From IMG/VR virus record IMGVR_UViG_3300030613_000001, positions 1-63,520 of that record: a DNA stretch of 63,520 nt; one strand, 5' to 3'. The notes below the pieces were generated by a model that was not told the origin of the DNA, ran no database searches, and saw nothing but the letters and a program-made list of their open reading frames with translations. Position numbers and translations under genes: made by a program. Source of the DNA: a virus. Shown piece after piece: positions 6,226 through 54,577 of this stretch (position 1 is its first letter; each line of letters opens with the position of its first letter).

Positions 6226-8864
6226 CACACCGCCCTCAACCCGATCCCGAGCATACCGGGCTTGCGTCCCATGTCCTCCGGCAGCCGGCCCTTCTTCACC
6301 GCCGGCAGGTAGTTCAGGACGCTGTGATAGAACTTGATCTTCCCCAGGCCCTGCAGCCCCGACTTCTCCGCCCAGGCTCGGTAGTTTTCAAACAACGTCT
6401 CAGCCGCCGCCTTATTGTCCGGCCCCAACTCACAGTTTTCGCTAACCCACATTAAAAACGGGTTCATCTCCTGAAGGAATCGCTGCTTGTCCTCTTCCAG
6501 TGTGTCCGTTTCCGCAAATCCCCGGCGCCGTATCAGCTCGCATGCCCCCTCCAGCATCCATAGAAAAATGCCGGCGCGTTCCTCTTGCAGCTTGGCCACC
6601 AGGTCCACGTCCCGCCGGTCCCCCTCGAAACGCTGGTTGAAATTCAGGATCAGGATCTTGCGCACGAACCCGTAGGACTTATCCACGATCGAGGGCACCT
6701 CGTTCAGCGCAAAACAGAACTTTGCCGTCGGGTAGAAGTCGATCCGTTGCTTGTACTTCCACTCCCCGCTCACCATGTCGCCCGAAATGCACTTCTTCAG
6801 CACGGATACCGCACTCGGCTCCCGCGTAGTCATCTCCGAGCACGTCACCAGCAGCTTGTCCTGCAGGTATGGTATGTTGAAACTCCGCGCCAGGTCGTCC
6901 AGGCTCATTTCAATGGTGTTCTCTTTTCCCAAAACCTGGATAAATGTGTTAATCACCGTGCTCTTGCCGTTCGCACCCGCCCCCACCAGGAACGCCGCCC
7001 GCTCGTACTTGCACGTCGGCAGCAGCAGATACCCGCCGTATTGCTGCAGCAGCTCCAGCTTGTCGTCGCCGGCGCAGTTTTTTCCGGTTTCCGCACACTC
7101 GCGTCCCTCGGGAAACATCTCCCATAGGGTCTTTGTCCACTTGTTGCACATTGCGTCGGGATCGAACTCCACCGGCAGCTGTGCCCGGCATCCATAAGCC
7201 GGATCGTGCGGCTTCAGGAGCTTGCCTATATCGATTTCCTCGCGCGGCGCGAACACCAACTGCTCAAGGTCGACCACGCCGTTCTTCAGGTTGATGATAT
7301 ACGGCCACCGCGCCCACTCGCTTTCTTCCCGGTTCACCATTGCGCTTAAGACCTGGCGGCTGCTCTTGATCCAATCAGCCTGAACCCGGTCCTTCATGGC
7401 CTGCACCACCATCTGATCGATTTTACTGTCCTTGTACCGCTTCCAGCACCCGTCCTGATACCGCCAGAACCCACCGTCCGTGCACACTATGGGCGCCAGG
7501 TACGCCGCCAGGTAGTTCGCCATGGTTTGCACCACGAACGCCGGCCTTCCGTGGTTGCCGCGCACCGTGAAAAACTCCATGGGATCGATGTCGAGCGGGC
7601 TCGGCAGTTCGGGCGCCCCCACCTCCACGCGCTCCGGCGTGATCGTCAACCCCTCCAGAACCCCGCTTCCGCACGTCTCCGGCGGCTTCCAGTTCGGGTC
7701 GTAGCCGGTCATGAACTTGATCAGCTTCTCGTCGCCCGAAATAACTTTCCGCGCATCGGCAAACGTCTTCCCGCGGCAACTGTTGTGCGAGCAGTGGTAT
7801 GATAGCTTGCCGTTGCTGTCCTGCAGGACCGCCGCGTCCTTCGCCTTGTGATCCGGGTTGAAGACGCACTCGGCAAGGTTGAAGCGCGTCATCACCCCCT
7901 GGTCGTCGACGCTGTGCACCGTGCGCCCGAACGCGGAAAGATACTCCTCGACCTTCAGCTTCCCCAGGTCGGGCGCCGGGTTCATGCGCTCGGCGGTTTT
8001 CCCCGTCGGACTCCCCCGCTTCGCCGGCACCCCCGTTTTACCTGATGTTGTGGGAGCGGCATCCTGCCGCGATTTTTTTTCAGCCGCCGGCGCCAGCGCC
8101 GCAAGCTGCTCCACCAACTCGATCGGCGTCACCGGCACCTGGTCGAACGTTTCCGGCGTATCCCCGAAAAGCTGGCTGCGCCGGTGCGGCCGGCTCTTGG
8201 TGGAGTCCCCCTTCCGCGCCAGGGTGGAGTAAAGCTTCCAGATCCTGGCCGGGTTGAACACCGACAAATCCACCTTCACCTTGTCGGTCGAAACCTTAGC
8301 CGCCACCGCCGCGAGGCAGCGCTTTACGATCGGGTCCCGCCGGTACTCCTCCGTGCAGGGGATGTCCGCGATCCGGTAGCACAGGTGATAGCCGTTACCG
8401 GAGAGCGCCTTGACCGGGGCCGCCCACCCCAGCCCGCGCAGGAACTCTGCCGCCGCCTTGGCCGCCTCGCCGGCAAGCGTCAGCTCCTCATCGGTCGCGG
8501 ACACCCCGGCCATCCGCTCCGGATCGAAGTCGAGCAGCAGCCAGCGCACCGCCCGGATATGCTGGTCGCTCGTCTGCGGCCGCTTCTTACTCGCCGTCAC
8601 CAGGTGGTTCGCGGCCTTGGAGATCGATTCCGGGTCCACCACGTTCGGCACGAAATAGACGCCGGCGGCCTCCGCCTTGTCGAGGGCTGCTGCCGCCCGG
8701 CCGAAGTCCTCGGCATTGTCGAAATAGCCGAAGACTACCGCGTCGTCGCCCTTGGCGAATCCATTCCAGGCTTGAGATCGGCCCGAAAGCCCCAGGGCCC
8801 GGATCTCCGTCACCTCGCCCGGACGGAAGAAGAGTCGATATACCTGCTCGGGAGTGCTCGGCAT
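6225..8864 (-). CDS. Bifunctional prim-pol (AEP) primase fused to an SF3 (P4/D5-type) helicase, 879 aa
   Basis: N-terminus has LLLDFDPER and SGNGYHLCYR (prim-pol motifs). C-terminus has the Walker A motif VGAGANGKST and D5/P4-type C-terminal region. Carries an in-frame REP-like insert (KKSRQDAAPT) in the interdomain linker. Confidence 0.9.
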   Translation of the reverse strand: MPSTPEQVYRLFFRPGEVTEIRALGLSGRSQAWNGFAKGDDAVVFGYFDNAEDFGRAAAALDKAEAAGVYFVPNVVDPESISKAANHLVTASKKRPQTSDQHIRAVRWLLLDFDPERMAGVSATDEELTLAGEAAKAAAEFLRGLGWAAPVKALSGNGYHLCYRIADIPCTEEYRRDPIVKRCLAAVAAKVSTDKVKVDLSVFNPARIWKLYSTLARKGDSTKSRPHRRSQLFGDTPETFDQVPVTPIELVEQLAALAPAAEKKSRQDAAPTTSGKTGVPAKRGSPTGKTAERMNPAPDLGKLKVEEYLSAFGRTVHSVDDQGVMTRFNLAECVFNPDHKAKDAAVLQDSNGKLSYHCSHNSCRGKTFADARKVISGDEKLIKFMTGYDPNWKPPETCGSGVLEGLTITPERVEVGAPELPSPLDIDPMEFFTVRGNHGRPAFVVQTMANYLAAYLAPIVCTDGGFWRYQDGCWKRYKDSKIDQMVVQAMKDRVQADWIKSSRQVLSAMVNREESEWARWPYIINLKNGVVDLEQLVFAPREEIDIGKLLKPHDPAYGCRAQLPVEFDPDAMCNKWTKTLWEMFPEGRECAETGKNCAGDDKLELLQQYGGYLLLPTCKYERAAFLVGAGANGKSTVINTFIQVLGKENTIEMSLDDLARSFNIPYLQDKLLVTCSEMTTREPSAVSVLKKCISGDMVSGEWKYKQRIDFYPTAKFCFALNEVPSIVDKSYGFVRKILILNFNQRFEGDRRDVDLVAKLQEERAGIFLWMLEGACELIRRRGFAETDTLEEDKQRFLQEMNPFLMWVSENCELGPDNKAAAETLFENYRAWAEKSGLQGLGKIKFYHSVLNYLPAVKKGRLPEDMGRKPGMLGIGLRAV
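8050..8073 (+). repeat. REP-like palindromic element, copy 1 (A/T-swapped stem)
   Basis: GTGGGAGCGGCATCCTGCCGCGAT; in frame in the primase linker (SRQDAAPT). Confidence 0.9.
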
Positions 8865-9487
8865 TATTTTTCAGGTGGCGGGGCGGCGGGGCCGGCGGCC
8901 GCCGGCCGTGGTTCATCCGGCAGCTTCAGCGTCCCGAAATTATCCTCATGATAACGAACGGCCCTGGCCACCAGATAAAACACCTGCTCCTCCAACCCAC
9001 GGTACTGCGACAGCGCCAAAAGCTTCAGCTTTCCGTAAAGCATCGGCACCCCGGCAAACACCTGGTCAAGCGCCCGGGCCGGCGGAACCGTCTCGCCGGC
9101 AAACGGCAACCGCCGCTGCGCTTCACCCGCGGGAGCGGCTTCCAGCCGCGATTCTTTTGCGGGAACGGCATCCTGCCGCGATTCTTCCGCCGCCTTGATC
9201 TTCTTAACGGCGGTGTAAATCGTGTTGATATTCCTGCCCATCTTCTGCGCCAGGGCGACAGTGGTCATCCGGTCGCGCATACCCTGCCGCACGATCGCCA
9301 TTTCCTCTTCGCTCATTTTCTTCCAGCGGCCCATGCCCCCTCCGGTAATATTCGTCTGATCGATCGGCACATTCTCACTCATCGGCCCCAGCCCGTGCAC
9401 ATATGCCACCCGCTTCGCGCACCGAACACACGTCGAATTGTTCTTGTCCGCCAGCTCATGCCGGCATCCGAGGCACGGGCTTTTCAT
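8864..9487 (-). CDS. Cys4 zinc-ribbon plus HTH DNA-binding protein (207 aa)
   Basis: N-terminus CLGC-x12-CVRC; HTH-like TTVALAQKMGRNINTIYTAVKK; two tandem in-frame REP-like inserts (EESRQDAVPAKESRLEAAPA). Confidence 0.7.
   Translation of the reverse strand: MKSPCLGCRHELADKNNSTCVRCAKRVAYVHGLGPMSENVPIDQTNITGGGMGRWKKMSEEEMAIVRQGMRDRMTTVALAQKMGRNINTIYTAVKKIKAAEESRQDAVPAKESRLEAAPAGEAQRRLPFAGETVPPARALDQVFAGVPMLYGKLKLLALSQYRGLEEQVFYLVARAVRYHEDNFGTLKLPDEPRPAAAGPAAPPPEK
9129..9152 (+). repeat. REP-like element, copy 2a
   Basis: GCGGGAGCGGCTTCCAGCCGCGAT; in frame in 8864..9487 (SRLEAAPA). Confidence 0.9.
9159..9182 (+). repeat. REP-like element, copy 2b (A/T-swapped stem), 30 nt from copy 2a
   Basis: GCGGGAACGGCATCCTGCCGCGAT; in frame (SRQDAVPA). 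Confidence 0.85.
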
Positions 9488-10272
9488 CAGACGACGAATC
9501 CATCATGTCTCAACAGCGTGACGGCTCCTGCCAGCATCCATAGAAACACGCCGTCTTTCTCGGCGGTAAGCTTCTCCAGCAAATCGGGATCGCGGTAACT
9601 GGCTGTGAATTGATGTGTAAATGGGATGATCAGCAGCCTGTCCATCAGCCCGTGCGCGAGCTCGTACCGCATCTCCATATTTATGTTCTGGCAGAAAATG
9701 GGCTTGCACGTGGGCTTGAAAGCGATCACCTCCCGTTTATACTTCCACCAGCCCTCCACAATGTCGCCGGCGATTATCGACTTCAATACGGCAACCGCGC
9801 GCTTGCTCCGGGGATTTAGATCACTGAAGGACAGTAACCTTTTGCCTTGCAAGGCAGGCGTGCTGAAAGCACTCTGCAAGTCGTCCATCACAGCAATCTC
9901 CGCCACAAGCGCGGACCCAAGAATCCTCCAAAGCAGTTGAACGAAAACGCTCTTTCCGTTGGCGCCGGCGCCTTGCAGAATGCACGCGCGGTTGTATCTA
10001 TTGTCCGGCAGCAGGATATATCCCGCGAACTGCTGCAGCAGATTGGCCTTCCCCCTTTCCATCGGAAATACTTCCTGCAGGTAGGCATTGAAACGCGGGC
10101 ATTTCGCCTCCGGCTGAAACTCGACGTTCAGCGGCGGATCGGACGCATCGCCTGCTCCATGCGGCTCAAAGACAACCGCATCCATAAGATCAGACCCGGC
10201 CGCCGCCAGCTTGCTTATGTTCACAACACCATTTTTTACTCTCACTCTGATATCGCCCTGCTCTTTTTCCAT
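9487..10272 (-). CDS. SF3 helicase / P4-family primase C-terminal domain paralog (261 aa)
   Basis: LQGAGANGKSVF Walker A and flanking sequence parallel the C-terminal half of 6225..8864 (FAGYILLPDNRYNRACILQGAGANGKS versus YGGYLLLPTCKYERAAFLVGAGANGKS). Confidence 0.8.
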   Translation of the reverse strand: MEKEQGDIRVRVKNGVVNISKLAAAGSDLMDAVVFEPHGAGDASDPPLNVEFQPEAKCPRFNAYLQEVFPMERGKANLLQQFAGYILLPDNRYNRACILQGAGANGKSVFVQLLWRILGSALVAEIAVMDDLQSAFSTPALQGKRLLSFSDLNPRSKRAVAVLKSIIAGDIVEGWWKYKREVIAFKPTCKPIFCQNINMEMRYELAHGLMDRLLIIPFTHQFTASYRDPDLLEKLTAEKDGVFLWMLAGAVTLLRHDGFVV

Positions 10273-12114: not shown

Positions 12115-12380
12115 TCATTGCTTAACCCCGTCGAACGTAAGCGCCTGCTCCGGTATCGGCCCATACTGCTCCTCCCATGCGGCCGTGCAGCGTTCCAGCA
12201 GCCGCTGTAGGCTGCGCGCGTGCATCGGGCTCATGTAGGCCTTCGCCACCGGAACGCAGGGCTCCTTGTCCCCCCCCCCGAACCCGCCACCGGAATCAAC
12301 CGCATAAAGTCGATCACCAGGTCGAACGGCCGCGTGTAAACCAGCACCCTGTTGCTGTAGATCACCGGAACGTCATTCAT
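12115..12380 (-). pseudogene. Gene interrupted at a G10 homopolymer (two reading frames; -1 shift or 11/8 G needed)
   Basis: SD AGGAGGGTGAGGG plus ATG 12380 opens MNDVPVIYSNRVLVYTRPFDLVIDFMRLIPVAGSGGG. After the G10 run (C10 on + strand, 12270..12279), GC3-rich coding continues in the -1 frame: DKEPCVPVAKAYMSPMHARSLQRLLERCTAAWEEQYGPIPEQALTFDGVKQ, stop at 12115. Confidence 0.6.
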
Positions 12381-12948
12381 TTCCCTCACCCTCCTGCGCC
12401 TGGGGGATGTCTGCATTTGTGGGAGCGGCTTCCAGCCGCGATTCTTTTTCGTCAGCCTTGCCCGCCGGCGGCAACGCAGCAATCTTTTCGCCGCCGTAGC
12501 CATATTCGGCCCCGCAATCCTTGCAGAAATACGCCGGCGCCAGCACAATCTGGTCCTTGGCCGCTCCCACCGCCAGACGCGAGACCCGCTGCACGCCATA
12601 GCCGACCGCAAACAGCTCCCCGGCGCCGATAAGCGGCGCGCATACCCGACAGCGTTCGAGCTTGCCGTGGTCCTTCACGAACGCGGGAATGTCCTCGTTT
12701 TCAAGCGCCCGGCCGCAGCAACGGCAGCACATCACCTCGACCATGGTAAGGCTTTCCTGCCTGGTCCGGCCCGACGACACCACGGCCGGCAGCCGGTAGA
12801 TGTTCATCACGCGGTCGAAATACCTTCCACCGCATTCCCCGCACACGACCGGCGTCATGTGCTCCTGCCGGATCGGCGTCGTTCGAATCCCGCCCGAAAC
12901 CGCCGGCTTGTGCTGATTAATGAATTGCTCCTGAAACCTACGTCCCAT
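12373..12948 (-). CDS. Multi-CxxC zinc-finger protein (191 aa)
   Basis: CGECGGRYF, CCRCCGR, CRVC and CKDCG motifs; in-frame REP-like insert near the C-terminus (EKESRLEAAPT). Confidence 0.7.
   Translation of the reverse strand: MGRRFQEQFINQHKPAVSGGIRTTPIRQEHMTPVVCGECGGRYFDRVMNIYRLPAVVSSGRTRQESLTMVEVMCCRCCGRALENEDIPAFVKDHGKLERCRVCAPLIGAGELFAVGYGVQRVSRLAVGAAKDQIVLAPAYFCKDCGAEYGYGGEKIAALPPAGKADEKESRLEAAPTNADIPQAQEGEGNE
12419..12442 (+). repeat. REP-like element, copy 3
   Basis: GTGGGAGCGGCTTCCAGCCGCGAT; in frame near the C-terminus of 12373..12948. Confidence 0.9.
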
Positions 12949-20765: not shown

Positions 20766-21005
20766 TCACCCGATGATCTTGAACTTGTGGGAGCGGCTTC
20801 CAGCCGCGATCTTCTTCTCTTTGCCATCCAGGTAACGGCCCCAGTCGTCCCTCGTGAAACGCTTGAACGCGCATCCCCGTCCGCTCTCGACCTGGGGCAG
20901 AAGCAGATCGACCTGGGCCGCAAGCGCGTCCAGGTCGAGAATCGTGCGCTGCTTGAGCGCCTCGATGGATTGCCGGATCAATCTCAGTTCGTCGTAGGTT
21001 GACAT
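20766..21005 (-). CDS. Hypothetical coiled-coil protein (79 aa)
   Basis: ATG 21005. The C-terminal tail KKIAAGSRSHKFKIIG is encoded by a REP-like copy read in a different frame from the other embedded copies. Confidence 0.55.
   Translation of the reverse strand: MSTYDELRLIRQSIEALKQRTILDLDALAAQVDLLLPQVESGRGCAFKRFTRDDWGRYLDGKEKKIAAGSRSHKFKIIG
20787..20810 (+). repeat. REP-like element, copy 4
   Basis: Consensus sequence; read in another frame (IAAGSRSHK) at the C-terminus of 20766..21005. Confidence 0.9.
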
Positions 21006-21066
21006 TGACAATTTTCCGATGTTAATCTATGTCAACGCAAATCCGCGCCCGAGAACCGGGCACGGA

Positions 21067-26544: not shown

Positions 26545-26560
26545 CAGCGATCCTCCCGTT

Positions 26561-26584
26561 GTGGGAGCGGCTTCCAGCCGCGAT
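26561..26584 (+). repeat. REP-like element, copy 5 (intergenic)
   Basis: Consensus sequence between the lipoprotein stop (26591) and the SD of 26317..26544. Confidence 0.9.
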
Positions 26585-26590
26585 TTTTCT

Positions 26591-27124: not shown

Positions 27125-30100
27125 GGCGTCCTCCTTTTGTAGGCTTCCTTGTACCACTTGCCCGCCCGCTTCACCGTCTCCCGGTCCTCGGAAGAAAGCG
27201 AGTTATAGAACTTCGTGCGGTACTTTTTCGGCAACGCCGCCAGCGGGTTGGCGCGGTCCACCGACATTTTCAACCCCTTCATGTTGCCGCCCAGCTCCTT
27301 GTACTTCTTGAGATACCGGGCGGCCGCCTCGGCATCCCCGTACTTTAGCGCGGTTTTGTACCAGTAAAGCGCGTTGCCCCGATCGGTGGGCTCGTGGAAT
27401 GGCCGCTCTATGTTCCGGTCCTCGAGGAACCGGGAAACCAGTTCGCGTGCTCCGTAATAGGCCGTCTCCCCCGGGTTCGCGCTGTAGGAAAACGTCCGCA
27501 TGATGTCGTCCCACACCTGGCCGGCCAGGTCCCCGCCTTTCATCGGGCGCCCAACGACGCGCCGGTAGAAGGATTCCAGGGACAGCATACGCGCCACGTA
27601 CTCGCCCTTGTCGCGGATCGGCCGCGGCCGCCAGAACTCGGGATAAACCGTACGTCCGGAAATAAGTTCCGCCCCGCCCTTGATGTCCGGCCGCATGCCC
27701 TGTATCAGTTTGTTCGCGGGTTCGGCAGCCGCCTCCCCCAGCCACCGGTAGACCGTCTTTTTCCCGGTGGCGAGATCCTTCATATCCTCCGGGAAATCGT
27801 GTAGGTTGAACCAGCTCAATGCGTCGGAGAGCGCCCCCTGCAGGCGCAGGCTTATGATCGACCCGTCCGACCGCCGCCCCAGAATCAGGTGCATCTGCCG
27901 GCGGCCCTCTTCGCCCAGCTCGTCCTCCTCGTCCGGGAACATCAGCGCATTCCAGAGTGCGACTGCCCCGTAAATCATGAAAGCCTTGGCACCAAGGAAG
28001 GCCGCCTTCTTGCCGGCTACCGCCCCCATCAGCGCGACACGCCGGCCGGCCGGCTCGCCCTCCACCGCGATATTTCGCATCATCCGCCAGTAGCGCGGCG
28101 CGTTGATCTCCTGCCAGCTGTAAAACGGAATCAGCTTGCGCCGTAGCCAGCGCCCACCCTTGGAAAGCCCGCCATAGTCGCCCACCAGCTCGCGCGAGAG
28201 CAACCCCGCCTTGCGGTCGATCTCGTCGTTTGCGATCGCATCCACCTTCGACGGCAGACTCGCCCCATAGACCCGCTCGCCGGCGGCAACCCGTTCCTTG
28301 AAGTACCTGAAGGCGGCAAGCCGCAGCACGTTTTCCCGCCAGCTCGTGAAATTCTTGGAGCCGTGCCAGAATCGCGCAATCAAATCGATTGCCACGTTGT
28401 CGCGGGCACCCATTGCGCGCTCAAGCTGCCGGAATTCGGGAAGCTTGCCCACGTCCGGGATATCGTGGGCCGTGATCCCGCCGATCACCCCGTGCTGGAG
28501 TGCGGCCTTGAACTCGGCTTTAAGCTCCGGGCTCATCGACTTGTCGTAGTGGTAGGCCCATAGGTCGCGCATGGCGCGGCCGGCGTGCTTGAGGATCCTC
28601 GGATCGTAGGCAAGGGCGATGTCCAGATCGCCACTCAGGTTGTTCAGGTTGTACTTGACCACGCGAAGCGGGTTGATCAGGATCCAGCGCTTCCACATGT
28701 TGAGGGTGTTTTCCGCCAGGCCGCTCACCACGTTGTCCTTGCCCTTGCTCTGGAAGTCGGCACCGTCCATCACCTCGGCGAGCTCGGCCGGAATCACCCA
28801 GCGCACGTCGGCACCGCGCGCGAGCACCGGTCGCGTGTCGCCGGACTCAAGCTGCCGGTTGCCTGCCAGCACCTCGCCCAGGATCTGGTCGTTGATGGAG
28901 TTCGTCATGTACCAGGCCGTCCCCGGCCGCGGCACCCACTCGGCCCATCCGGTCGATCCGGCCCGAGGTGCCAGTTGTTTCATCGTGTTGCGCCAGGTGA
29001 CATACCGGCGTCCGAGTGCCTGCTTCCTGAAGGCGCCTTTCTCGGTCGGGTCAAGCGCCTCGTACTGCTGCTTGAGTTGCGGATCGGATTTCAGCATGGC
29101 CTTGAACGCCGCCTTGTTCTGCCTGCGCGCCACGTTCCGCAACTGGGAGATGACGTTCGCGGACCGGCCGATATCGTCCAGCACCTTCTTCCTGGCCAGC
29201 CGCTCGTAGCCCTGCGCCAGCACCTGGAACTCGCTCTCGATGTACTTGGTGTTGTAGTCCTTGATCGACCCGGTGCGCGCGTACTGCCAGCCCGCCTTGC
29301 GTACCCGCACCTCGCCCGCCTCGACCCCGGCGGCGTGCTTGGCGTTGGCGTATTCGAGCACCTGGTGGTGAAAGTAGCGATCGTCGTCCAGCACACTCTC
29401 GGGCAGCATTTGCGCGTTGACCAACGCCTGCCGCAGTTTGCCCATTACCGCCTGGCGCCGGTTGAGCGCGTCCCGCACCTTGGGACGGGCGACCATGGCC
29501 GCGTCCACCTTGGCGATCGCGGCATCCACCTCGTCCTTGCTCTTGAACCCGAAGGCGATCTCGCCCTCCGCGTCCACGATCTCCCGCCAGCTCTCCAGCA
29601 CCCCGCCCGGCTCCATGTCGCGCGTCAGGTCGTCCAGCACGAGCTTCAGCCCGAACAGGTCATGCTCGGCGGCGGTCATGTTTTTCGGCTCCAGGATGTC
29701 CTTCAACTCCATGATGGCGCGGGCCTTGCCGTAGTCCCCGGCCTCCATGAATTCCCGCAACAGCACGTTTTCGCGGCCGAAACGCGCGTTCGGCATCTTG
29801 GGAAACATCCGGCCCGGAGTGAAGGTTGCCACGGCAAGCTTCGTTTTCTCTTTGATCGTTTCCAGCAGCTTCGTCCGTTCTATCTTGGAGGCGCGGTACC
29901 GCTCCGCCACCGCCGCCGGCAGCACGTCCGTCACGATGTCGTATTCCTCTTCCCCCGCTTTTGTGGGAGCGGCTTCCAGCCGCGATTCCTCTCGCGCCCG
30001 CAGCGCCCCCGCCTCGCGGTATCCCGGCCCGGCGGCGCGCTCGGCCGCCAATGTACCCTCCCCGCGCCGCTCATACACCCGGCCGCTCTCGATCTCCCGC

Positions 30101-36100: not shown

Positions 36101-39100
36101 GCTTCGCCGGGGATTTCTCGAACAGGTTCTTCACCCGCTGCGGCTGGTTGTCCAGCAGCCAGATCAGCCGCGCTTCGTACATCGGATCGCTTTGCGGGTT
36201 CTCGATCTCCAGGCTCGAGGACTCGACCTGGTTCAGATCCTTCAGGCTCAAAGCTTTCATCGGCCACCTCCTTGGTTGGTGGTGACGTTTGTTCAATTAT
36301 AACGCTTTCCGGGGGTTTTTCAAGAGTTTTCTTCCCCGTCAACGTAGCCGTGGCGTCTGTCTTAGGCTTTGCGCTCAGCTTGATCGCATGAAATTTACCA
36401 TTGCGGTCGCTCAGATCCAGCCGGTCCAGGGTGATCTCCTGGCCGCTGAAACGCTTGTCTCCGGCGTATTCCTTGCCCTTTCCGGGCATCACATAGGCGA
36501 TCGTGACGTGCGGCTTATAATCCTTGTGTGTCTCGCCCGGGGCCTTCTCGGTTTCGCCTACCAGCCGGTTTGCCCGGTCGAGGTCGGGGCTCGTGACGTC
36601 GGCCTTGACGACATCGTACTTCTCGCCCGCAAAAATAGAGACGTCACCGAGGGTTGCCTTGATGGGCCCGAAACCTTTGAACGCCTTCCGCAGGTTCTCC
36701 GGGGAATCGGTCGCAAGCCCATAGCGCACCGTTACGTGGGGTTTCTCCTCGCGCCCATAGCCATCCGTGTCCGCCGGATCTACATAGAGATCTTCGTCCG
36801 GGATCTCGCGGGCGAAGTCCCTGATGGAATCCGCCACATCCGCCGGCATGTCCACCTGGGTGCTGCTGTAATCGTGAGCGATCGGTATCTGCTCTTCAGA
36901 TTTCGCTTCGGCGGCTGGAACCGCCTTCTTTCCCGTCAACGTTTCCACCGCGCGGGTCTTGTGTTTTTCAGGAATCGCCGCCGCGGGGACGGACTCCCGG
37001 GCCGCCTCACCTTCCAGGCCCTCGCCGGCCCTCGGCCGCAGAACGAATCCACCCTCCACCGCGGCGACATCGTGAGAGCCTTCGAGTTTCTTGCCCCGCC
37101 GCGCAAAACGCGCCGCATTCGCGTTTTTGTATGGCTGGCCATCCTTGTTGAGAATGTCGCCCTGAGGGATCGGTTTGCCGGGCAGCGTCGCCGCCGCGAC
37201 TTCAGCGACTTCCTCCTTGCCGATCAGACTCTCTATCTCTTTCCGGCTGTACGGGCCGCGCCACCCGCTGACTTTCTCTATGGTAATCGGAGCGGACACC
37301 CATTGCGGCTTGTCATCCGCAGCGATGTACCATCCGCCGGTTTTGGTCCGGGCGTCTTCCTGGAACGCCTGCTCGTCTTGAGATATGTAACTCTCCGGGA
37401 TTACCCGCGGTCTTCCGGTCAGCGTCGCTACTGCATCGGTCCTGGGCTTTTCGGACTGGTCTCTTTCCTGCTGCAAACTGTCCGTGATGCCCGGGTACTC
37501 GTCGAGCACCTCCTGCGGCACGGGCTTGTCTTCACGCAAAGCATTGAGCACCCGGACGTAGTGGTTGGCTCGCGCCAGACGTTCTTGCCCTTTAAAACGG
37601 GCAGCGTCGCGCCACTTGATGATAACCGCCGCCTGCGCGTGCTTGTTGGGCATGGAGACGTTTTCGCCGATCGTGCGCGCGATCTCACGCAGCGAATCGG
37701 CATGCTCGCGCTCGGCCAGGGACTCGATTGTGTCATCTGAGATCCGGCGGCGTATGTCGATCGACCGGGCGATCCTACGGGCACGCTCTTCTTTTGTGCC
37801 GGATTTCGGGATGCCCATGACGATGGCGAGCTGCTCAATCTCTTTATTGGAACGGTCCTTAACCTGCGCGTAGTCGATATTTTGCGGATCGAGCGCCAAG
37901 ATCGACTTGGCGGGAACCTTGAGCGCATCGGGGTGTCCTTTCCTAAACTCCCGGGGAGTCATCTGCCATGGTTCTTTTTTCTCGGCAGTGTCGGTTTTTA
38001 CCGCTTCCGCGGCCTGCGGCTGTACGACCTCGGCGGCTGACACCGGTGGTGCTTGTCCCTGCATAGGGGAAGGCGAGATCGTTGAACCTTGGGCCTCTAA
38101 TGCAGTCGCCCCGGCAAGCCACGGCGCCGCTGCTTCCACGGGTAGAGTTTCGGTCTTTTGCGCGGTTTCCGCCTGAGGAAGAGCTTCCGCCGCCGCTGCT
38201 TCCTCCACCGCCACCACGGAAGCCTGCCGCATCGGGGCGGATCGGCCGGTCAAAAGCTTGCGGATATCGGTCTTCTTCCGCTCCGGGGCTTTTGCCTGGG
38301 CGGTTACGTCCTCGCCGGTGGCGCCGATCGGCGGCGCCTTCTCTTCCGTGGGAGCGGCCTCCAGCCGCGATTCCTCGATGTCCTCCGAAATGGCCCTGCC
38401 CTGCAATACCGCCTGCAGCGCCCCCTCGCGCCAGCGCTCGGCAAGCCCCTTGTCCACCCGACCTAATTCGTCCGCCACGGCACCCACGGCCGAAAACCGG
38501 TCTTCCGCACCGGCATCTGGGTCCATCAGCGCGTCCCGGACCTGCCCGGTGCGCAGCTTGTGCACCCCGCCGCCGACAGCGCCGAAGATCAGGCTCGCCA
38601 CCCCGATCTGACCGAAATTCTCCTTTACCGCACCCCAGAACCGTTCGTCGCCCACCTTGTAGGTGTGCTCGATCTCGGCCTGGGTGCCCACGTTGACAAG
38701 CTCGCCCGCCGTCTCCGTCCCGGTCACCGCAAGACCGCGCTTGGCCGCCTCGGACCAGGAGGACGAAATCAATCTCTTGATACCGTCCTTCGCCGCCGCC
38801 TTGGCCGGCTTGGTGAGCACACCGCCCATTCCGACGGTAGCAAGCTCCAGGGCGTCCGTAAAAAACTCGAACCCCGCCTCGGAGGCCCCCATCAAAAGCG
38901 CCGCGTGCTGCGCCTCGTCCTTTGGAACCCCTTTCTTGACGTATTCGTCATAGGACTGCTGGTACTGCGCAAGGCCAAAGAGCGGCGCCCCCATGATGTA
39001 GCCGAGTGCCGCTCCGGCGGCTCCGCCCGTCGCAGCACCGAGCGCCACCGTGGGAGCCGCCACCCCCAGGGAGGTAACGGCCGACTCAACCCCGCCCGTC

Positions 39101-39513
39101 CATGCCTTCCGCACCGGATCCGTCCGCGCCTGGCGCGACACCGGCAGCACGTCCTCGCGGAAACCGGCGATGTCCCGGGCCGCTTCGGCCATTATCGGCG
39201 CCTCTTCGCCCCCCAGGGTGTCAACCGCCGCGAGGGCCCGGGCGCCCATCTCGGCTACCCCGACCGCACCTCGCGCAACCGACGCCCCGACGTCCGCGAG
39301 CACCCCCCGATCGGGCGCAGGCGCACGGTGCGGAGCTATGTTCGCGTCGACAAACTCGGTCCTGATCGCCGCCTGCTCATTATCCGGCAACTCGCGGAAG
39401 CGCTCGTCGGCCAGGTCCTGATCGAAGTAACGGCTTATCAGCCGCTCCTTGTCGACCGTTGGAAGCTTGGCGAAATCAGGCTCGCCGAACCACTGCTGTA
39501 CGGTTCTGTTCAT
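27121..39513 (-). CDS. Giant polyvalent virion/ejection protein (4130 aa): 2H phosphoesterase + N6-adenine DNA methyltransferase + SNF2/DEAD-type helicase + HExxH metallopeptidase-like motif + large C-terminal region
   Basis: Single uninterrupted ORF; all motifs listed in the domain features were checked to lie in frame 0. Sits after three putative internal virion proteins and before the lysis genes. DarB-like methyltransferase-helicase core. Confidence 0.85.
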   Translation of the reverse strand: MNRTVQQWFGEPDFAKLPTVDKERLISRYFDQDLADERFRELPDNEQAAIRTEFVDANIAPHRAPAPDRGVLADVGASVARGAVGVAEMGARALAAVDTLGGEEAPIMAEAARDIAGFREDVLPVSRQARTDPVRKAWTGGVESAVTSLGVAAPTVALGAATGGAAGAALGYIMGAPLFGLAQYQQSYDEYVKKGVPKDEAQHAALLMGASEAGFEFFTDALELATVGMGGVLTKPAKAAAKDGIKRLISSSWSEAAKRGLAVTGTETAGELVNVGTQAEIEHTYKVGDERFWGAVKENFGQIGVASLIFGAVGGGVHKLRTGQVRDALMDPDAGAEDRFSAVGAVADELGRVDKGLAERWREGALQAVLQGRAISEDIEESRLEAAPTEEKAPPIGATGEDVTAQAKAPERKKTDIRKLLTGRSAPMRQASVVAVEEAAAAEALPQAETAQKTETLPVEAAAPWLAGATALEAQGSTISPSPMQGQAPPVSAAEVVQPQAAEAVKTDTAEKKEPWQMTPREFRKGHPDALKVPAKSILALDPQNIDYAQVKDRSNKEIEQLAIVMGIPKSGTKEERARRIARSIDIRRRISDDTIESLAEREHADSLREIARTIGENVSMPNKHAQAAVIIKWRDAARFKGQERLARANHYVRVLNALREDKPVPQEVLDEYPGITDSLQQERDQSEKPRTDAVATLTGRPRVIPESYISQDEQAFQEDARTKTGGWYIAADDKPQWVSAPITIEKVSGWRGPYSRKEIESLIGKEEVAEVAAATLPGKPIPQGDILNKDGQPYKNANAARFARRGKKLEGSHDVAAVEGGFVLRPRAGEGLEGEAARESVPAAAIPEKHKTRAVETLTGKKAVPAAEAKSEEQIPIAHDYSSTQVDMPADVADSIRDFAREIPDEDLYVDPADTDGYGREEKPHVTVRYGLATDSPENLRKAFKGFGPIKATLGDVSIFAGEKYDVVKADVTSPDLDRANRLVGETEKAPGETHKDYKPHVTIAYVMPGKGKEYAGDKRFSGQEITLDRLDLSDRNGKFHAIKLSAKPKTDATATLTGKKTLEKPPESVIIEQTSPPTKEVADESFEPEGSEPGRVLEPGDREPAKRSDVRSAADLAAGQPAAAGEEPVREIPGEAEGGAAAQPASGEPGAGAAAATGNRPHRGGRTGARPDRGAGGRTGALLESPEAAAGKRAGEDTRRPVELAPEDRNHVIAPDDELIAPGDEGKIKANIKAIELVNRLYAENRNPSPEEKKVLAQYVGWGAFAQKIFNEEYTRPLDDFAAGRRTPERTFWQTGTLDKFNTWKSKYGKKLHPALGGALTQEEWDAARASTLNAHYTDRDVITRMWAMVARLGFKGGAVLEPAAGVGHFIGMMPETLAEKSRVNAVELDAITGKILTKLYPQARVQISGFEKARGLGDNTQDLVISNFPFGKFSVFDPKRKQYEKWSIHNYFFGRSLDAVRPGGLVVAITSHFTLDAATNGEIRAELAKKADFVGGIRLPNNAFKKNAGTEVVTDILVFRKKDASSYGLAQDFRVAEEIAIGKDGKAFVNEYFVKHPEMVLGKHSTQGTMYSDNEYTVEPLGDRNDFNLQLIHAVGRFPENIMGEGQAAEAAAGPVKYAERGDPDGALIERDGEIYMVTEGKLVAPTLIDSKGKEVAALASASRKARAAQYLKIKSAHKTLIERSNTHEATDAELATLRAELNRSYDEYVRLYGYIGDTSNSFLKKIDIEFPVVDSLENEEVAIVADTVKSGKNKGQPTNRKVKTFTKSDTFTKRTIYPFVEPTTAENIEDAVSLSEVYRAGMDTGYIAQLIGRDETDVRTELVTKGLAFLNPQTGLLEAPDAYLSGNVKKKLKAAQAAAEDNPEYAGNVKALEAVQPAAVDIEFIHFKLGSPWLPAESIQDFLKETMGVDARAAFSKNNEMSRWHMEVTNGEYAALNRETWGAGGMSGSDLVADALNLKRPQVTYTEIDDGVRRTVKDVEATEAAQAKQEEIQEEFLRWARAHERWKKDLAEIYNEEKNGHVLRAQTNPRIEHFPGANPQIKLRPLQKRFVARGLRESTIFSYGVGTGKTYSFISLAMEMRRVGTAKKPLIVVQNSTIGQYRKAFNRLYPGARVLIPDEKQRAARYRQRLLSQMATGDWDAIVMPHSFFDGIADDPEREAAFIREQIDMINTALAEAEDEGADHWTVKDLEALKQRKETRLEKALDRRKDKAIPFEQMGIDALLVDEAHAYKRSEFFTKMAKVKGIDSGASQRSTSLFLKARYVQGKTGGKNVILATGTPISNTTAELWTIVRYVRPDLLEDYGIELFDDFAATFGRTQTALEETETGTYREVERFNKYVNGLELLTMWRTAADVQLTRDAGLKLPDIAGGKPEFVTVERTPQLNRFIDQIRAAREQWDHLSGKEKMKNRHVPLVLFGLAKKAAVDMRLVNARNDDHPDSKLNQVVKNVFEVWKGTAGNRSTQVVFLDSYRDSTGRFNAYEDIRAKLIEQGIPKEEVAVVTDAKGDAAREALFDRVRSGAVRVVIGSSQKLGVGVNMQDLLYAAHHVDVPPRPMDIEQRNGRIVREGNSNPKVRIYNYGVRATLDSVMYDRLTKKQRFIDQMLVGDIEGREFDDPLSEEQASLAEMMAAFSGNPLVFEKTDVDLKVKKLRRARLRWEHEVSMARRQAGELEGDRIPNWETALKEEKDQTAELERTIPGGKLAEFVVRGKPADRKALNEALVAFETTEQKKLPTTMTTAEWADYKENRPVMHFNFTAHRHNVQVGIRPVYTNKNGYSNIDQRKKELIAYDKLHEINEYKLSGFDIAVGFGRKGEDFLIKRAVNKMGGLLSSLENEIARINERPANTEKHIEQMRKDLGEFKKIATRPFGQAAELKEAEERLHAIEEELKKIPSQVSKEAGEGNALDGLLSMTKVDTEGEGPAETPEAEEAAAEIPAAGAGEEEYAIEPGKKIAGNDIPLEDVQAVFPGQKITQDDGGIWITTMAGRQLYVHSVEHVSVDQATVDAYFGTKQPAGEYKAAGAYVRRRGVVRLVRGAGTNAWVLQHEAVHWMEDAGILAKDDIVALRNKIRQEAAAGRWEPKNPKDIGGKEDRANWIRQELADRKEHRGSLKRILDTVADFLDAIVNLFKVTARGVVREIESGRVYERRGEGTLAAERAAGPGYREAGALRAREESRLEAAPTKAGEEEYDIVTDVLPAAVAERYRASKIERTKLLETIKEKTKLAVATFTPGRMFPKMPNARFGRENVLLREFMEAGDYGKARAIMELKDILEPKNMTAAEHDLFGLKLVLDDLTRDMEPGGVLESWREIVDAEGEIAFGFKSKDEVDAAIAKVDAAMVARPKVRDALNRRQAVMGKLRQALVNAQMLPESVLDDDRYFHHQVLEYANAKHAAGVEAGEVRVRKAGWQYARTGSIKDYNTKYIESEFQVLAQGYERLARKKVLDDIGRSANVISQLRNVARRQNKAAFKAMLKSDPQLKQQYEALDPTEKGAFRKQALGRRYVTWRNTMKQLAPRAGSTGWAEWVPRPGTAWYMTNSINDQILGEVLAGNRQLESGDTRPVLARGADVRWVIPAELAEVMDGADFQSKGKDNVVSGLAENTLNMWKRWILINPLRVVKYNLNNLSGDLDIALAYDPRILKHAGRAMRDLWAYHYDKSMSPELKAEFKAALQHGVIGGITAHDIPDVGKLPEFRQLERAMGARDNVAIDLIARFWHGSKNFTSWRENVLRLAAFRYFKERVAAGERVYGASLPSKVDAIANDEIDRKAGLLSRELVGDYGGLSKGGRWLRRKLIPFYSWQEINAPRYWRMMRNIAVEGEPAGRRVALMGAVAGKKAAFLGAKAFMIYGAVALWNALMFPDEEDELGEEGRRQMHLILGRRSDGSIISLRLQGALSDALSWFNLHDFPEDMKDLATGKKTVYRWLGEAAAEPANKLIQGMRPDIKGGAELISGRTVYPEFWRPRPIRDKGEYVARMLSLESFYRRVVGRPMKGGDLAGQVWDDIMRTFSYSANPGETAYYGARELVSRFLEDRNIERPFHEPTDRGNALYWYKTALKYGDAEAAARYLKKYKELGGNMKGLKMSVDRANPLAALPKKYRTKFYNSLSSEDRETVKRAGKWYKEAYKRRTP
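29963..29986 (+). repeat. REP-like element, copy 6
   Basis: Consensus sequence; in frame in the giant protein (REESRLEAAPTKAGEEEY). Confidence 0.9.
30361..30375 (-). other. HEAVH (HExxH) zincin-like motif in the giant protein
   Basis: cac gaa gcc gtg cac in frame 0, in the context WVLQHEAVHWMEDAGI. Confidence 0.5.
31750..33380 (-). other. SNF2/DEAD-like helicase domain of the giant protein
   Basis: Walker A GVGTGKT (33292..33312), VDEAH (32815..32829), LATGTPISN, motif VI QRNGRIVREGN (about 31798..31830). Confidence 0.85.
34936..35840 (-). other. N6-adenine DNA methyltransferase domain of the giant protein
   Basis: Motif I LEPAAGVGH (35401..35427) and motif IV SNFPFG (35212..35229), preceded by the LAQYVGWG helix typical of methyltransferase-helicase fusion proteins. 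Confidence 0.8.
35895..36260 (-). CDS. Nested ORF (121 aa) in the +1 frame of the giant gene
   Basis: Perfect AAGGAGGT 5 nt before ATG 36260, TAG stop at 35895. Product MKALSLKDLNQVESSSLEIENPQSDPMYEARLIWLLDNQPQRVKNLFEKSPAKLKAELLRNLQVASLEQVRLLQQG... is helical and protein-like. About 105 of 121 codons end in G/C by hand count, whereas frame 0 here is low-complexity. Confidence 0.6.
   Translation of the reverse strand: MKALSLKDLNQVESSSLEIENPQSDPMYEARLIWLLDNQPQRVKNLFEKSPAKLKAELLRNLQVASLEQVRLLQQGIDRTEADELVLARIVAPADGPALSSNPPKPLPESEREKILDALLS
36376..36880 (-). other. 2H phosphoesterase (LigT / cyclic phosphodiesterase-like) domain of the giant protein
   Basis: Two H-x-T motifs at the right spacing: PHVTVR (36724..36741) and PHVTIA (36496..36513), about 75 residues apart. 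Confidence 0.7.
38348..38371 (+). repeat. REP-like element, copy 7 (one unpaired stem change)
   Basis: GTGGGAGCGGCCTCCAGCCGCGAT; in frame in the giant protein (IEESRLEAAPTEEK). Confidence 0.9.
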
Positions 39514-42518: not shown

Positions 42519-43126
42519 GCCGCCTCCTTCCTTCCCGCGACCGCGCGTACGCGGCTTTCCGCCGCGATTTCCCGGGTGATGTAGCTCAGCACCGCGCCCA
42601 CGCGCCGGCCTTCATGTTCGTCCCAGAACATCTCCGGTATCGTCGCGGCGATCCGCCCTCCGAGGGCCTCGGCAAAGCGCACACCGAGCCGGTTGTTTAC
42701 GGGCGTAAGCCCCATTATCACCGGGTAGAGCGCCTGCCCGGCGCCGTCCTCCATGCCGAGCAGAAAATCGAACACGAACCGCCCGATCTCCCGCGCCTGC
42801 GCCCCCCAGTAATCCCGGAAATAGCAGTGATGCACCAGAGCGCTCCCGCCCATGTAATTGGTCAAAAAAACCAGCGCGGCGAATTGCTGCCTGTCTTTAT
42901 CGGTATCGTACACGGCGAACAGGTGCACTCCGGCGGAGGTCGCCAGCGCCACGAAATCGTCCGCCGTTCCGACACTGCCGTCATGGAAGATCCACCGGTC
43001 GAGCCGCTCCATCTTCATCTGAAAGAACAGCCCCCGCAGCAAACTCGGCCGCAAACTCGCCACCCCGTCCACCACGGCGTAGGGTATGATCCGCCAGCGC
43101 TCGCCTTCGCTCATCATATCCACCAT
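42515..43126 (-). CDS. Hypothetical protein (203 aa), possibly acetyltransferase-fold
   Basis: ATG 43126. The C-terminal half (VIMGLTPVNNRLGVRFAEALGGRIAATIP) is reminiscent of a GNAT cofactor-binding region, but this is not established. Confidence 0.5.
   Translation of the reverse strand: MVDMMSEGERWRIIPYAVVDGVASLRPSLLRGLFFQMKMERLDRWIFHDGSVGTADDFVALATSAGVHLFAVYDTDKDRQQFAALVFLTNYMGGSALVHHCYFRDYWGAQAREIGRFVFDFLLGMEDGAGQALYPVIMGLTPVNNRLGVRFAEALGGRIAATIPEMFWDEHEGRRVGAVLSYITREIAAESRVRAVAGRKEAA
42551..42569 (+). repeat. Possible degenerate REP-like remnant
   Basis: GCGGCTTTCCGCCGCGATT versus consensus GCGGCTTCCAGCCGCGATT (2 mismatches, no GTGG head); lies in the C-terminal tail of 42515..43126. 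Confidence 0.35.
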
Positions 43127-47280: not shown

Positions 47281-47304
47281 GTGGGAGCGGCATCATGCCG
47301 CGAT
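47281..47304 (+). repeat. REP-like element, copy 8 (A/T-swapped stem; intergenic)
   Basis: GTGGGAGCGGCATCATGCCGCGAT between the stop of 47304..48002 and the SD of 46633..47259. Confidence 0.9.
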
Positions 47305-48002
47305 CAGCTTATCTCGTGCTGTTCCGTCGAACGGTCCACCGCCTCCGCCTCGACCTGCTCCTTCTTCCCCACCAACCCCGCGAAAAGCTGGTACCAGGCC
47401 GTTGCCCGCTCGCGCGCCCCGGGCGAGAAATCGGCGTCCTTGGCGTAGGCCCAGAACACGTCGTAATAAACCAGCGCGTTCTCGTACTCATCCCCCAGTT
47501 CGATCGCAACGTCATAGGAGCCGGCCGGCTTCACCAGGTCTGGCGCCAGCGCTCCGCGCTGCATCCACACATAGCCTTGGTTGGTCGCAGGCTGCGGCGG
47601 GATCACCGCGAAAAGCTTCGGCGTGCGGTCGTCGTAGGCGTAGTGCTTGACGGCGGCGGTGGGGTCGAGTGCCGCGAAGAACGGATTCCAGGCCTGCATC
47701 TTTTCCAGATCGACCTTGGTGACAAGCCTTCCCGCCGTAATCCCGTCGGTCCCCATGTTGTGGGAGATCCGCAGGAGCGCAAGCTCGTTTGCCGCAAGCG
47801 TTTGCCATGTCCCCGCCGCAAGCTTCACCGCCCCGGAGAGCACGTAGGTGTCCGGCTTCAAAAAGCAGATCTCGCGCTGTCCCCGGTTCACCCCGTCGAA
47901 GAGCCACGCATCCGTCCACCGCCGCTCCGAGGCCTCCTCGTTTTCCTCCTGCAAAAGCCCGGTAGCCGCCGCCATGATCGCCGATGCCAGTACGGTTCCC
48001 AT
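47304..48002 (-). CDS. Structural hypothetical protein (232 aa)
   Basis: ATG-initiated track ORF; the stop abuts a REP-like copy. Confidence 0.65.
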   Translation of the reverse strand: MGTVLASAIMAAATGLLQEENEEASERRWTDAWLFDGVNRGQREICFLKPDTYVLSGAVKLAAGTWQTLAANELALLRISHNMGTDGITAGRLVTKVDLEKMQAWNPFFAALDPTAAVKHYAYDDRTPKLFAVIPPQPATNQGYVWMQRGALAPDLVKPAGSYDVAIELGDEYENALVYYDVFWAYAKDADFSPGARERATAWYQLFAGLVGKKEQVEAEAVDRSTEQHEIS

Positions 48003-49935: not shown

Positions 49936-50868
49936 TTAGCCTCCAATCAGTTTTTTAAACCGCGCGCCGAGGATGCCTGCAACTTTTCTGTAGGTTATCA
50001 GGGGGTTCAGAAGAGTCGCTATGAGCCCGGATGCCGCCGGCATATCTCCTACGGCGGATTGGTGCGTGCTGAAGGCCGGCTGCGCTTCTCCGGTAGGACC
50101 GGGCAGCGCGCCGAAGCGCGAAACAGCCATCCCCTTGGAAACCGCGCCTGCAATCGCACCGAACACTCCTGCCAAACTTTTTAAAATTGATTTTGCAACG
50201 GACCCGCTGCCGGACGGCATGGCACCGAACAGTGCCTTGCGGGTCGCCTTTGAGACCGCCCCGGCCGGACTCGGTGCATTGCCCTCGTTCAGCTTGAGCA
50301 GCACGGCAGAGGCGGACGCGTTTCCGATAGGCCCGGGCAGCGCGCCGAAGCGCGAAACAGCCATCCCCTTGGAAACCGCGCCTGCGATCGCACCGAACAC
50401 TCCTGCCAAACTTTTTAAGATTGATTTTGCAACAGACCCGCTGCCGGACGGCATGGCACCGAACAGTGCTTTGAGGGTTGCTTTGGAGATCGCCCCGGCG
50501 GGACTCGGTGCATTGCCTTCGTTCAGCTTTTGCAACACGGCGGAGGCGGCCAGGGACCCGGATTGTCCGGGAAGGGACCCGGAGGTTCCCTTGCTGGTTT
50601 GCTTGACAGGGCCGCCGGCAAAGGGCGCCGGTAAGGCCCCGGTGAGAATTCTTGCAACAAAGCGCGAGATTGATCCTGATGGCGCCGGGAAAGCGCCGGA
50701 AACGGAGCGCGAAAACAGGACGAGAGCCGATACGGCGCCTGACTGCGCCGGCATGGCCCCCGATACGCCCTGGGTGTATTCCGTCCCGGCGGCCTTGGAC
50801 GGCAGAGGCCACCGGCGCAAGATGCCGCGCAGCGCGTAGTCGAAGGGTCTGCGGAAAACGTAGGGCAT
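49936..50868 (-). CDS. Repeat-rich Gly/Ala/Ser/Pro protein (310 aa) with an internal 78-aa duplication
   Basis: Two near-identical 78-aa units (…LNEGNAPSPAGA(I/V)SKAT(L/R)KALFGAMPSGSGSVAKSILKSLAGVFGAIAGAVSKGMAVSRFGALPGP…). Confidence 0.65.
   Translation of the reverse strand: MPYVFRRPFDYALRGILRRWPLPSKAAGTEYTQGVSGAMPAQSGAVSALVLFSRSVSGAFPAPSGSISRFVARILTGALPAPFAGGPVKQTSKGTSGSLPGQSGSLAASAVLQKLNEGNAPSPAGAISKATLKALFGAMPSGSGSVAKSILKSLAGVFGAIAGAVSKGMAVSRFGALPGPIGNASASAVLLKLNEGNAPSPAGAVSKATRKALFGAMPSGSGSVAKSILKSLAGVFGAIAGAVSKGMAVSRFGALPGPTGEAQPAFSTHQSAVGDMPAASGLIATLLNPLITYRKVAGILGARFKKLIGG
50099..50550. repeat. 234-bp tandem duplication (2 units, few mismatches)
   Basis: ccgggcagcgcgccgaagcgcgaaacagccatcccc... 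begins at 50099 and again at 50333. Confidence 0.9.
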
Positions 50869-54525: not shown

Positions 54526-54553
54526 AAAAACCTCTCAATGTTTTGTTGTTTTT

Positions 54554-54577
54554 GTGGGAGCGGCTTCCAGCCGCGAT
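54554..54577 (+). repeat. REP-like element, copy 9 (intergenic)
   Basis: Consensus sequence between the stop of 54591..55055 and the SD of 53833..54525. Confidence 0.9.

Follow-up and report, generated by a model that had tools for sequence, protein, structure and literature searches.

Palindromic repeats of probable REP type on one strand of a temperate phage genome

The repeats and their positions in the phage genome

The window analysed here (63,520 nt, the whole of the IMG/VR virus record IMGVR_UViG_3300030613_000001) is the genome of a temperate phage, in which a 24-nt hairpin family is by far the dominant repeat. Ten copies were found, all on the + strand and at the positions listed in an initial annotation of the sequence. 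A search with the query GTGGGAGCGGCTTCCAGCCGCGAT, allowing up to three mismatches and compared with 100 dinucleotide shuffles of the window, identified nine of these (8050, 9129, 12419, 20787, 26561, 29963, 38348, 47281, and 54554); there were 0 matches in the shuffles and none is expected by chance. The tenth copy (9159, +), which is GCGGGAACGGCATCCTGCCGCGAT, has four mismatches and starts exactly 30 nt past the start of the copy at 9129. This is a density of 1 copy per 6.3 kb. Sequence comparison supports the assignment of all ten to the GTAG-type REP (repetitive extragenic palindromic) family, with the GTAG-1 pattern, and it is probable that a host REP-associated tyrosine transposase (RAYT) inserted them as single units, strand-specifically, into phage or prophage DNA, selection keeping those at harmless sites.

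The consensus of the repeat is (T)GTGGGAGCGGCTTCCAGCCGCGAT, to which five of the copies are identical and which is also the master sequence in bacteria. It consists of a GTGG head, GA, the hairpin GCGGCT-TCC-AGCCGC, and a GAT tail, and every version is predicted to fold as a 6-bp stem with a 3-nt loop (-10.1 kcal/mol as RNA). The paired stem swap initially described for the copies at 8050, 9159, and 47281 is present, giving the A/T stem variant GCGGCA...TGCCGC. The loop of the 47281 copy is also altered, to TCA, and in the 38348 copy there is a T-to-C change at the top of the stem without a change in its partner (C.A). The GTGG head is found in most copies; in those at 9129 and 9159 it is GCGG. 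These two form a head-to-tail pair, and the other eight positions hold singlets on the same strand. With all units on one strand, there are no inverted doublets (REPIN organisation) in the window. Likeness among the phage copies ends within 1-3 nt of the 24-nt unit. A C/T-rich tail, previously considered to accompany the element, is present at approximately eight of the ten copies, where its complementary strand consists of Glu/Lys codons or A-rich spacers, but it does not belong to the element, being absent from bacterial copies. Neither of two suggested relics is significant. The one reported at 42551 (42545..42568, +) matches at 18/24 positions (six mismatches), with a 5-bp hairpin and no head motif, and approximately 0.2 equally good matches are expected by chance; the other is a 10-nt head fragment at 206.

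Six copies are within open reading frames (ORFs) that are supported by homology, all of them in Glu/Lys/Ala-rich low-complexity linkers or tails, and all read in one shared sense frame as SR(L/Q)(E/D)AAP(T/A). The A/T-stem copy at 8050..8073 (+) is in the P4/D5-type primase-helicase gene (6225-8864, -), where residues 265-272 (SRQDAAPT), which it encodes, are part of the variable linker that joins the primase domain to the helicase domain. The head-to-tail pair is in the linker of a 207-aa gene (8864-9487, -), the first copy (9129..9152, +) read as SRLEAAPA and the second, with the A/T stem (9159..9182, +), as SRQDAVPA. An exact copy (12419..12442, +) encodes SRLEAAPT in the C-terminal tail of a 191-aa gene (12373-12948, -). 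The remaining two are in a gene for a 4130-aa DarB-like methyltransferase/helicase (27121-39513, -), both read as SRLEAAPT: an exact copy (29963..29986, +; residues 3177-3184) at a module boundary, and one with a single mismatch (38348..38371, +; residues 382-389) in a linker. Homology of the 4130-aa protein to the giant proteins of two other viral contigs, L222 and L223, begins at residue 3179, which is the site of the 29963 repeat.

A seventh copy (20787..20810, +; exact) may also be intragenic, as it is near the C-terminus of a probable 81-aa ORF (20766-21011, -) with a coding-like pattern of G+C content at codon positions 1, 2, and 3; here it is read in the other sense frame, as IAAGSRSH. 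Should this ORF be unreal, the repeat would be 38 nt upstream of a GTG start (20749). The extragenic location expected of REPs is therefore not seen for six or seven of the ten. Since the unit is 24 nt, or eight codons, and is stop-free in every frame, its insertion never breaks a reading frame. For annotators, the recurring eight-residue patches SRLEAAPT and IAAGSRSH in phage proteins from sediment metagenomes are to be regarded as repeat-derived linker filler, not as a protein motif.

The other three copies, or four if that at 20787 is included, occupy short spacers and precede a start codon by 16-38 nt. The exact copy at 26561..26584 (+) is most likely intergenic, being 16 nt upstream of an ATG (26544) with the ribosome-binding site GGGAGG; an ORF can be drawn around it (26317-26706), the upstream portion of which is not protein-like. 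The A/T-stem copy with the TCA loop (47281..47304, +) is intergenic, 21 nt upstream of an ATG (47259), its last + strand base being the final A of the TGA stop of the gene at 47304-48002 (-). The exchange of LE for QD initially ascribed to the stem swap does not apply to this copy. The exact copy at 54554..54577 (+) is 13 nt past the TAG stop (54591) of the gene at 54591-55055 (-) and 28 nt upstream of an ATG (54525). A 302-codon ORF (54577-55485, -) that apparently ends at this copy is probably spurious, judging from tblastx comparison with related phages, which supports genes at 54591-55055 and 55152-55604 instead. These two are separated by a 96-nt spacer, and the same spacer holds a REP in one group of relatives.

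The proximity of these copies to start codons raises the possibility that the hairpins now serve the phage as co-opted RNA or DNA signals. In leftward transcripts their role could be that of barriers to 3'-exonucleases, processing sites, or modulators of translation, and on the + strand they could be terminators of antisense transcription, composed of the hairpin, GAT, and a T run. Bacterial REPs are thought to act as RNA elements downstream of genes (PMC3733652). In the sense orientation, the CUCCCAC tail is complementary to ribosome-binding sites; at 26561, CTCCC can pair with GGGAG to form a potential hairpin of 5 bp with a 5-nt loop (26544-26584, - strand). Such pairing could hide that ribosome-binding site, which belongs to the next gene. 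A lenient terminator scan of the + strand is passed by five copies. However, six copies are deep within ORFs, where a hairpin of -10 kcal/mol would have little regulatory effect, and the T run derives from Glu/Lys codons and is missing at 29963, 38348, 47281, and 54554, as well as in bacterial copies. The sense strand has no U run past the hairpin, only CUCCCAC, and on the + strand the T run begins 3 nt beyond the stem. Terminator-like sites are no more numerous in the region (22) than in shuffled sequence (19.5), and no Rfam family, CRISPR-DR included, has a match in the window. A signalling role is considered unlikely for the family.

The repeat family in bacteria

Searching bacterial genomes for the repeat had been proposed as a test in advance, and the exact 22-mer core, GGGAGCGGCWTCCWGCCGCGAT, is present in at least 120 bacterial genome stretches, mostly metagenome-assembled genomes (MAGs). 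Among the matches listed, the main taxa are Desulfobacterales/'delta proteobacteria', Woeseiaceae, Thioalkalivibrio, and other Gammaproteobacteria, with single matches on long contigs of Poribacteria, Omnitrophota, Ignavibacteriota, Acidobacteriota, and Chloroflexia. There are 250 copies in the listed 8-kb stretches when the search is relaxed, and single genomes have many loci, for example the Desulfosudis oleivorans MAG DYJD01 and the chromosome CP070694.1. Alignment of 152 near-exact bacterial copies defines a unit of 24-26 nt, (Y)(T)GTGGGAGCGGCTTCCAGCCGCGAT, with sharp bounds, unconserved flanks, and a head that is more than 93 % conserved.

In these bacteria the units are commonly arranged as REPIN-like inverted pairs 25-60 nt apart (for example in L004, L014, L044, and L067), and for 98 of the 152 near-exact copies a partner lies no more than 200 nt away. 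Head-to-tail arrays are also present. Six REPs with a 30-nt period and 6-nt gaps are found within a 459-codon open frame in L035 (4530-4703, -), and an array in L032 (7340-7761) has a 47-nt period with a repeated 23-nt spacer. Two further arrays have alternating orientation (L114, 450-1234) or a 228-nt composite period (L060, 1400-2259). In nine stretches of the Desulfosudis oleivorans MAG (L005, L008, L020, L024, L066, L075, L086, L106, and L118), the REP is centred in a palindromic composite of approximately 90 nt, CCTTGATCATCGTTTCGGCC...REP...GGCCGAAACGATGATCAAGG, which looks like a miniature inverted-repeat transposable element with the REP in its loop.

The stem-closing pair of the bacterial copies is TA in 147, AT in 38, CG in seven, GC in two, and non-pairing in two. 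The hairpin is therefore under selection, as shown by the covariation of this pair. The compensatory change in the phage copies had been taken as a sign of selection on structure; the pair does covary, in bacteria, yet the A/T form is a pre-existing bacterial subfamily and not a change that arose in the phage.

A RAYT gene adjoins the repeats. In L037, a stretch of the Desulfosudis oleivorans MAG, a 155-aa gene (1652-2119) matches NF047646, the NCBIfam model for REP-associated tyrosine transposases, with 122.9 bits (cutoff 80 bits; E = 9e-36) and also Pfam Y1_Tnp, and it is flanked on both sides by inverted REPs (1593, +, and 2135, -). In L072, from Woeseiaceae, a partial RAYT (87.6 bits against NF047646) has an adjoining REP. 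The two RAYTs are approximately 47-50 % identical over their shared part, yet the 24-mer they neighbour is identical in MAGs of several phyla. This identity across phyla implies either a very tight constraint of the enzyme on the sequence or horizontal movement of the repeat. The family would seem to be abundant in the chromosomes of Desulfobacterales and further bacteria of sediments, and to be maintained there by RAYT. The initial proposal of a REP-type element of the kind mobilised by RAYTs is borne out by its multiple copies in bacteria, the REPIN-like pairs, and the flanking RAYT in L037; the proposal that the phage has no RAYT gene also holds, as none is encoded in the window.

The closest described systems are the GTAG-type REP/REPIN-RAYT systems, GTAG-1 of Pseudomonas, Thioalkalivibrio, and Thauera (PMC3733652; PMC3116915; PMC8266576). 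The GTAG-1 pattern is a GT(A/G)G head, two extra bases, a stem-loop, and a 3-nt tail (PMC3733652). The present repeat has in common with it the G+C-rich hairpin, the GT(A/G)G head 5' of the stem, the two extra bases (GA), and the 3-nt tail (GAT). High chromosomal copy number, inverted doublets, tandem arrays, complementary stem subfamilies, a REP-flanked RAYT, and occasional intragenic copies, often in replication or repair genes, are likewise shared with GTAG REPs, and both their presence inside genes and the complementary stem subfamilies are documented (PMC3733652). Unlike these, the window copies are in a phage, at the density of a REP-rich chromosome, on one strand, mostly intragenic, and arranged as singlets with one head-to-tail pair.

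Other identities for the repeat can be set against these bacterial loci. The shared frame of the six homology-supported intragenic copies would suit a conserved peptide motif, SRLEAAPT, with the likeness to REPs coincidental. Nevertheless, the identical nucleotides are found in intergenic DNA of many bacteria, adjoining RAYT genes, and some primase homologues read the element in the other frame, as IAAGSRSH. A solitary CRISPR repeat, one of the alternatives initially put forward, is contradicted by array spacing (6-nt gaps in L035, repeated 23-nt spacers in L032), by the predominance of inverted pairs, and by the lack of a match to Rfam CRISPR-DR. The giant protein has a superficial resemblance to the virion RNA polymerase of N4, which uses hairpin promoters; it is DarB-like and not an RNA polymerase, and the copies are spread across the genome. 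All three identities are refuted, and together they retain next to no probability.

Turnover of copies among related phages

The phage copies were compared with those of related viral contigs. L129 corresponds to the primase region (primase 89 % identical to that of the window at the amino acid level), and L224, with protein P0121 (84 % amino acid identity), to the start of the giant gene. Gene order is shared with L122 over 54.1-57.1 kb of the window, with L124 over 46.9-48.9 kb, with L194 over 40-48 kb, and with L132, L142, L168, L193, and L202 over 55-60 kb. A metagenome scan with the primase found only distant relatives (up to 41 %). The viral scan with the giant protein missed the closest relative, and a chimeric, low-complexity giant-protein query returned only three homologues, P0121 among them.

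Copies are gained and lost between these genomes. L129 has an orthologous copy in the primase linker and keeps only this one, the sites equivalent to 9129/9159 and 12419 having no REP. Its orthologue of the 207-aa protein is conserved on both sides of the REP-less site, and its orthologue of the 191-aa protein is 164 aa long, without the REP and without the extended tail. At the site of the 38348 copy, L224 (P0121) has unrelated low-complexity sequence in place of the REP; elsewhere in the giant gene it has an exact REP (5612; residue 519 of P0121) at a position that is free of REPs in the window. Similarly, the junction equivalent to 54554 is (CTTCAGC)n without a REP in L122, which has a copy at 9176, in the linker of a 378-aa protein, that is not in the window. 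Two REPs are present in a spacer in L124 (3481 and 3558), which in the window is 22 nt and empty, and the L142 group has a G/C-stem REP in the spacer that corresponds to 55056-55151, where the window lacks one. Among primase homologues, the linker reads SRQDAAPT, SRRDAAPT, or, in the other frame, (I/V)AAGSRSH, and most homologues carry nothing. Relatives therefore lack the peptide at the same protein positions, although its conservation there would be expected of a peptide motif.

Three stem subfamilies, T/A, A/T, and G/C, are present in the phage lineage, and all match bacterial subfamilies. The junction at 47281 is occupied by an A/T-stem REP in the window and by a G/C-stem REP in L194, whereas in L124 there are simple repeats of 9 nt and no REP. 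A REP in two phages with differing stems that still pair is what would be expected if the hairpin were a co-opted signal at this junction. On the other hand, copies are not conserved at orthologous sites between relatives that are 80-90 % identical, where other simple repeats are found instead, and this argues against such a role for the family.

Where the window has a REP at a junction, relatives have other short tandem repeats, including (CTTCAGC)n, (CGCCTTC)n, and (TTTAGTCAC)n (L122, 6590-6640; L194, approximately 1480-1570; L124, 1700-1830 and 3500-3560). In this phage lineage, turnover of simple repeats is concentrated in intergenic spacers and in linkers. A wider survey of orientation, using longest-ORF calls at 82 viral matches of a relaxed pattern, was set aside as too noisy in G+C-rich DNA, many of these matches not being REPs.

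Strand, frame, and the origin of the phage copies

Across the lineage there are approximately 15 independent sites, all with the repeat on the strand equivalent to the + strand of the window (two-sided probability approximately 6e-5). It was initially observed that no copies occur in the rightward gene blocks. This is true yet uninformative, because the two rightward blocks make up approximately 11 % of the genome, leftward transcription covering approximately 89 %, and only about one copy would be expected in them.

This strand lock could be accounted for by what is known of the enzyme. TnpAREP acts on single-stranded DNA, and on a given strand only if the head is 5' of the hairpin, cleaving at C|T with GTAG as guide (PMC8266576); the IS200/IS605 relatives target the lagging-strand template (PMC6006769). 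RAYTs are IS200/IS605-like HUH enzymes that act on single-stranded DNA hairpins, recognising only the strand that has the head 5' of the hairpin. REP copies would have been inserted in trans by the RAYT of a REP-bearing host, most probably while the temperate phage was resident or replicating in it. If one strand were exposed at a fork of constant direction, insertions would fall on one strand and the orientation would be locked; a prophage at a fixed attachment site, or one-directional phage replication, would gather one-strand insertions in this way. In such a tightly packed genome, the surviving insertions would be those in disordered Glu/Lys/Ala-rich linkers, in tails, or in gaps between a stop codon and a ribosome-binding site. 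We infer that the inserting agent was a RAYT, that the lock results from its strand specificity, and that the copies ride along as passengers and are not functional parts of the phage.

Parallels can be drawn with two other systems. Elements of the IS200/IS605 family, such as IS608 and ISDra2, likewise depend on a HUH tyrosine enzyme, a subterminal hairpin on one single strand, and a 5' guide tetranucleotide, and their strand-specific, replication-coupled insertion would yield an orientation lock. They differ in that the phage copies have no transposase gene and one hairpin instead of two distinct ends. Rickettsia palindromic elements, and other CGTC-type repeats, are likewise selfish palindromes that are tolerated in ORFs, with the frame kept and in permissive parts of proteins. 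The Rickettsia elements belong to another superfamily, many are longer, they have no known dedicated transposase, and they are chromosomal in obligate intracellular bacteria.

Several observations weigh against insertion by a host RAYT. Nearly all genes of the phage are co-directional, so that a strand bias of insertion is inseparable from selection on the transcript; the constant orientation relative to transcription at approximately 15 sites is equally a point in favour of a co-opted signal. Were the head-bearing strand the lagging-strand template, forks and most genes would run in opposite directions. The + strand is rich in C along its whole length and so gives no support to that role for it, although this skew may simply reflect transcription. 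There is also a bias in reading frame. The six window copies, and all but one or two of those in relatives, use one sense frame; the remaining intragenic copies use the second sense frame, and neither the third, which reads RGWKPLP, nor an antisense frame is used. Bacterial singlets show no preference in their 3' flank, unlike the phage copies. Comparison with L129, L224, L122, L124, and L194 revealed no clean 24-nt empty site; the polymorphic sites are all hypervariable linkers or spacers occupied by unrelated simple sequence, which leaves transposition, as opposed to some other replacement, unproven. None of the 120 bacterial loci compared has anything in common with the phage beyond the REP. 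Finally, prophages and other mobile elements have been reported as REP deserts (PMC3390384), and according to another study REP/RAYT systems are inherited vertically and do not occur on mobile agents (bioRxiv 10.1101/2021.07.10.451892).

The frame bias can be explained only partly by a target preference. The sense-strand flanks of the phage copies are mostly GA^R, and GAR triplets are codon-aligned in 56 % of cases. Suitability of the REP-encoded peptide for linkers may add to the bias. Stop read-through or gene fusion was rejected as the source of the constant frame, the homologous regions of L222 and L223 being within giant ORFs as well.

The regularities of strand and frame could alternatively be due to descent from a few founder copies that entered or spread by recombination, either through illegitimate or microhomology exchange with the host or between co-infecting phages at low-complexity linkers. 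Such an origin would suit the lack of a clean empty site, with filled and empty alleles differing by whole linker segments, and the 29963 copy is exactly where the homology of the giant protein begins, as at a mosaic joint. On the sense strand, GAA or AAA directly precedes the phage copies as a shared feature that is not seen in bacterial copies. However, similarity between copies ends 1-3 nt from the 24-nt unit with no host flank carried along, the lineage has three stem subfamilies that are all bacterial, and 24 nt is too short for ordinary homologous recombination. Recombination is therefore judged improbable, slightly more so than a co-opted signal, and strand-specific insertion of single units by a host RAYT is the preferred explanation.

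GTAG REPs, RAYTs, stem subfamilies, tandem and inverted arrangements, and intragenic copies have all been described previously (PMC3733652; PMC3116915). The location in a phage, the chromosome-like density, and the strand lock are new; neither the exact sequence nor a report of REPs in phage genes was found in the literature, coverage of which was incomplete. The most useful feature may be the lineage-wide strand lock of single units, which may show strand-specific REP insertion directly. The spread of REPs is still argued from old chromosomal copies and from test-tube cleavage assays, and this phage lineage offers fresh insertions from which the transposed unit and the choice of strand and of target are directly readable. 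It is a tentative suggestion, more doubtful than not, that temperate phages of REP-rich bacteria are live targets of host RAYTs, that their young strand-locked singles record REP insertion as it happens, as single units, on one strand and in real time, and that phages could move REPs between lineages. If this is so, phage-borne transfer might help to explain the identical 24-mer in several phyla, and phage copies would keep a record of insertion that chromosomal REPINs have erased.

Regarding the phage itself, the window ends (1-127 and 63394-63520) are an exact 127-nt direct repeat, indicating what appears to be a complete circular assembly of 63,393 bp, or otherwise a terminally redundant genome. 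Its genes include those for an integrase (22837-23937, +), the large terminase (60461-61933, -), and structural and tail proteins, as well as three of DNA methyltransferase type, and no tRNA was found in it. It is probably a phage of Desulfobacterales, based on the source names of primase homologues (Desulfatibacillum, Desulfobacterales, and Thermodesulfobacteriota). The 4130-aa ORF has a DarB-like methyltransferase/SNF2 helicase core (residues approximately 1040-2900) and a 2'-5' RNA ligase-like domain (approximately 917-1033). The giant proteins of L222 and L223 match only its last 950 or so residues, and no GenBank phage was found to have a closely related gene.

Two genes upstream of the primase-helicase, with the 207-aa gene between them, there is a stand-alone 261-aa D5-helicase-like gene (9487-10272, -), which is a paralogue of the C-terminal half of the primase-helicase and has 36 % identity to the L129 primase. 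Within another ORF (49936-50868, -), two tandem copies of a 234-nt unit (50083-50550) are 91 % identical, and probably reflect the duplication of a domain in a tail or structural protein.

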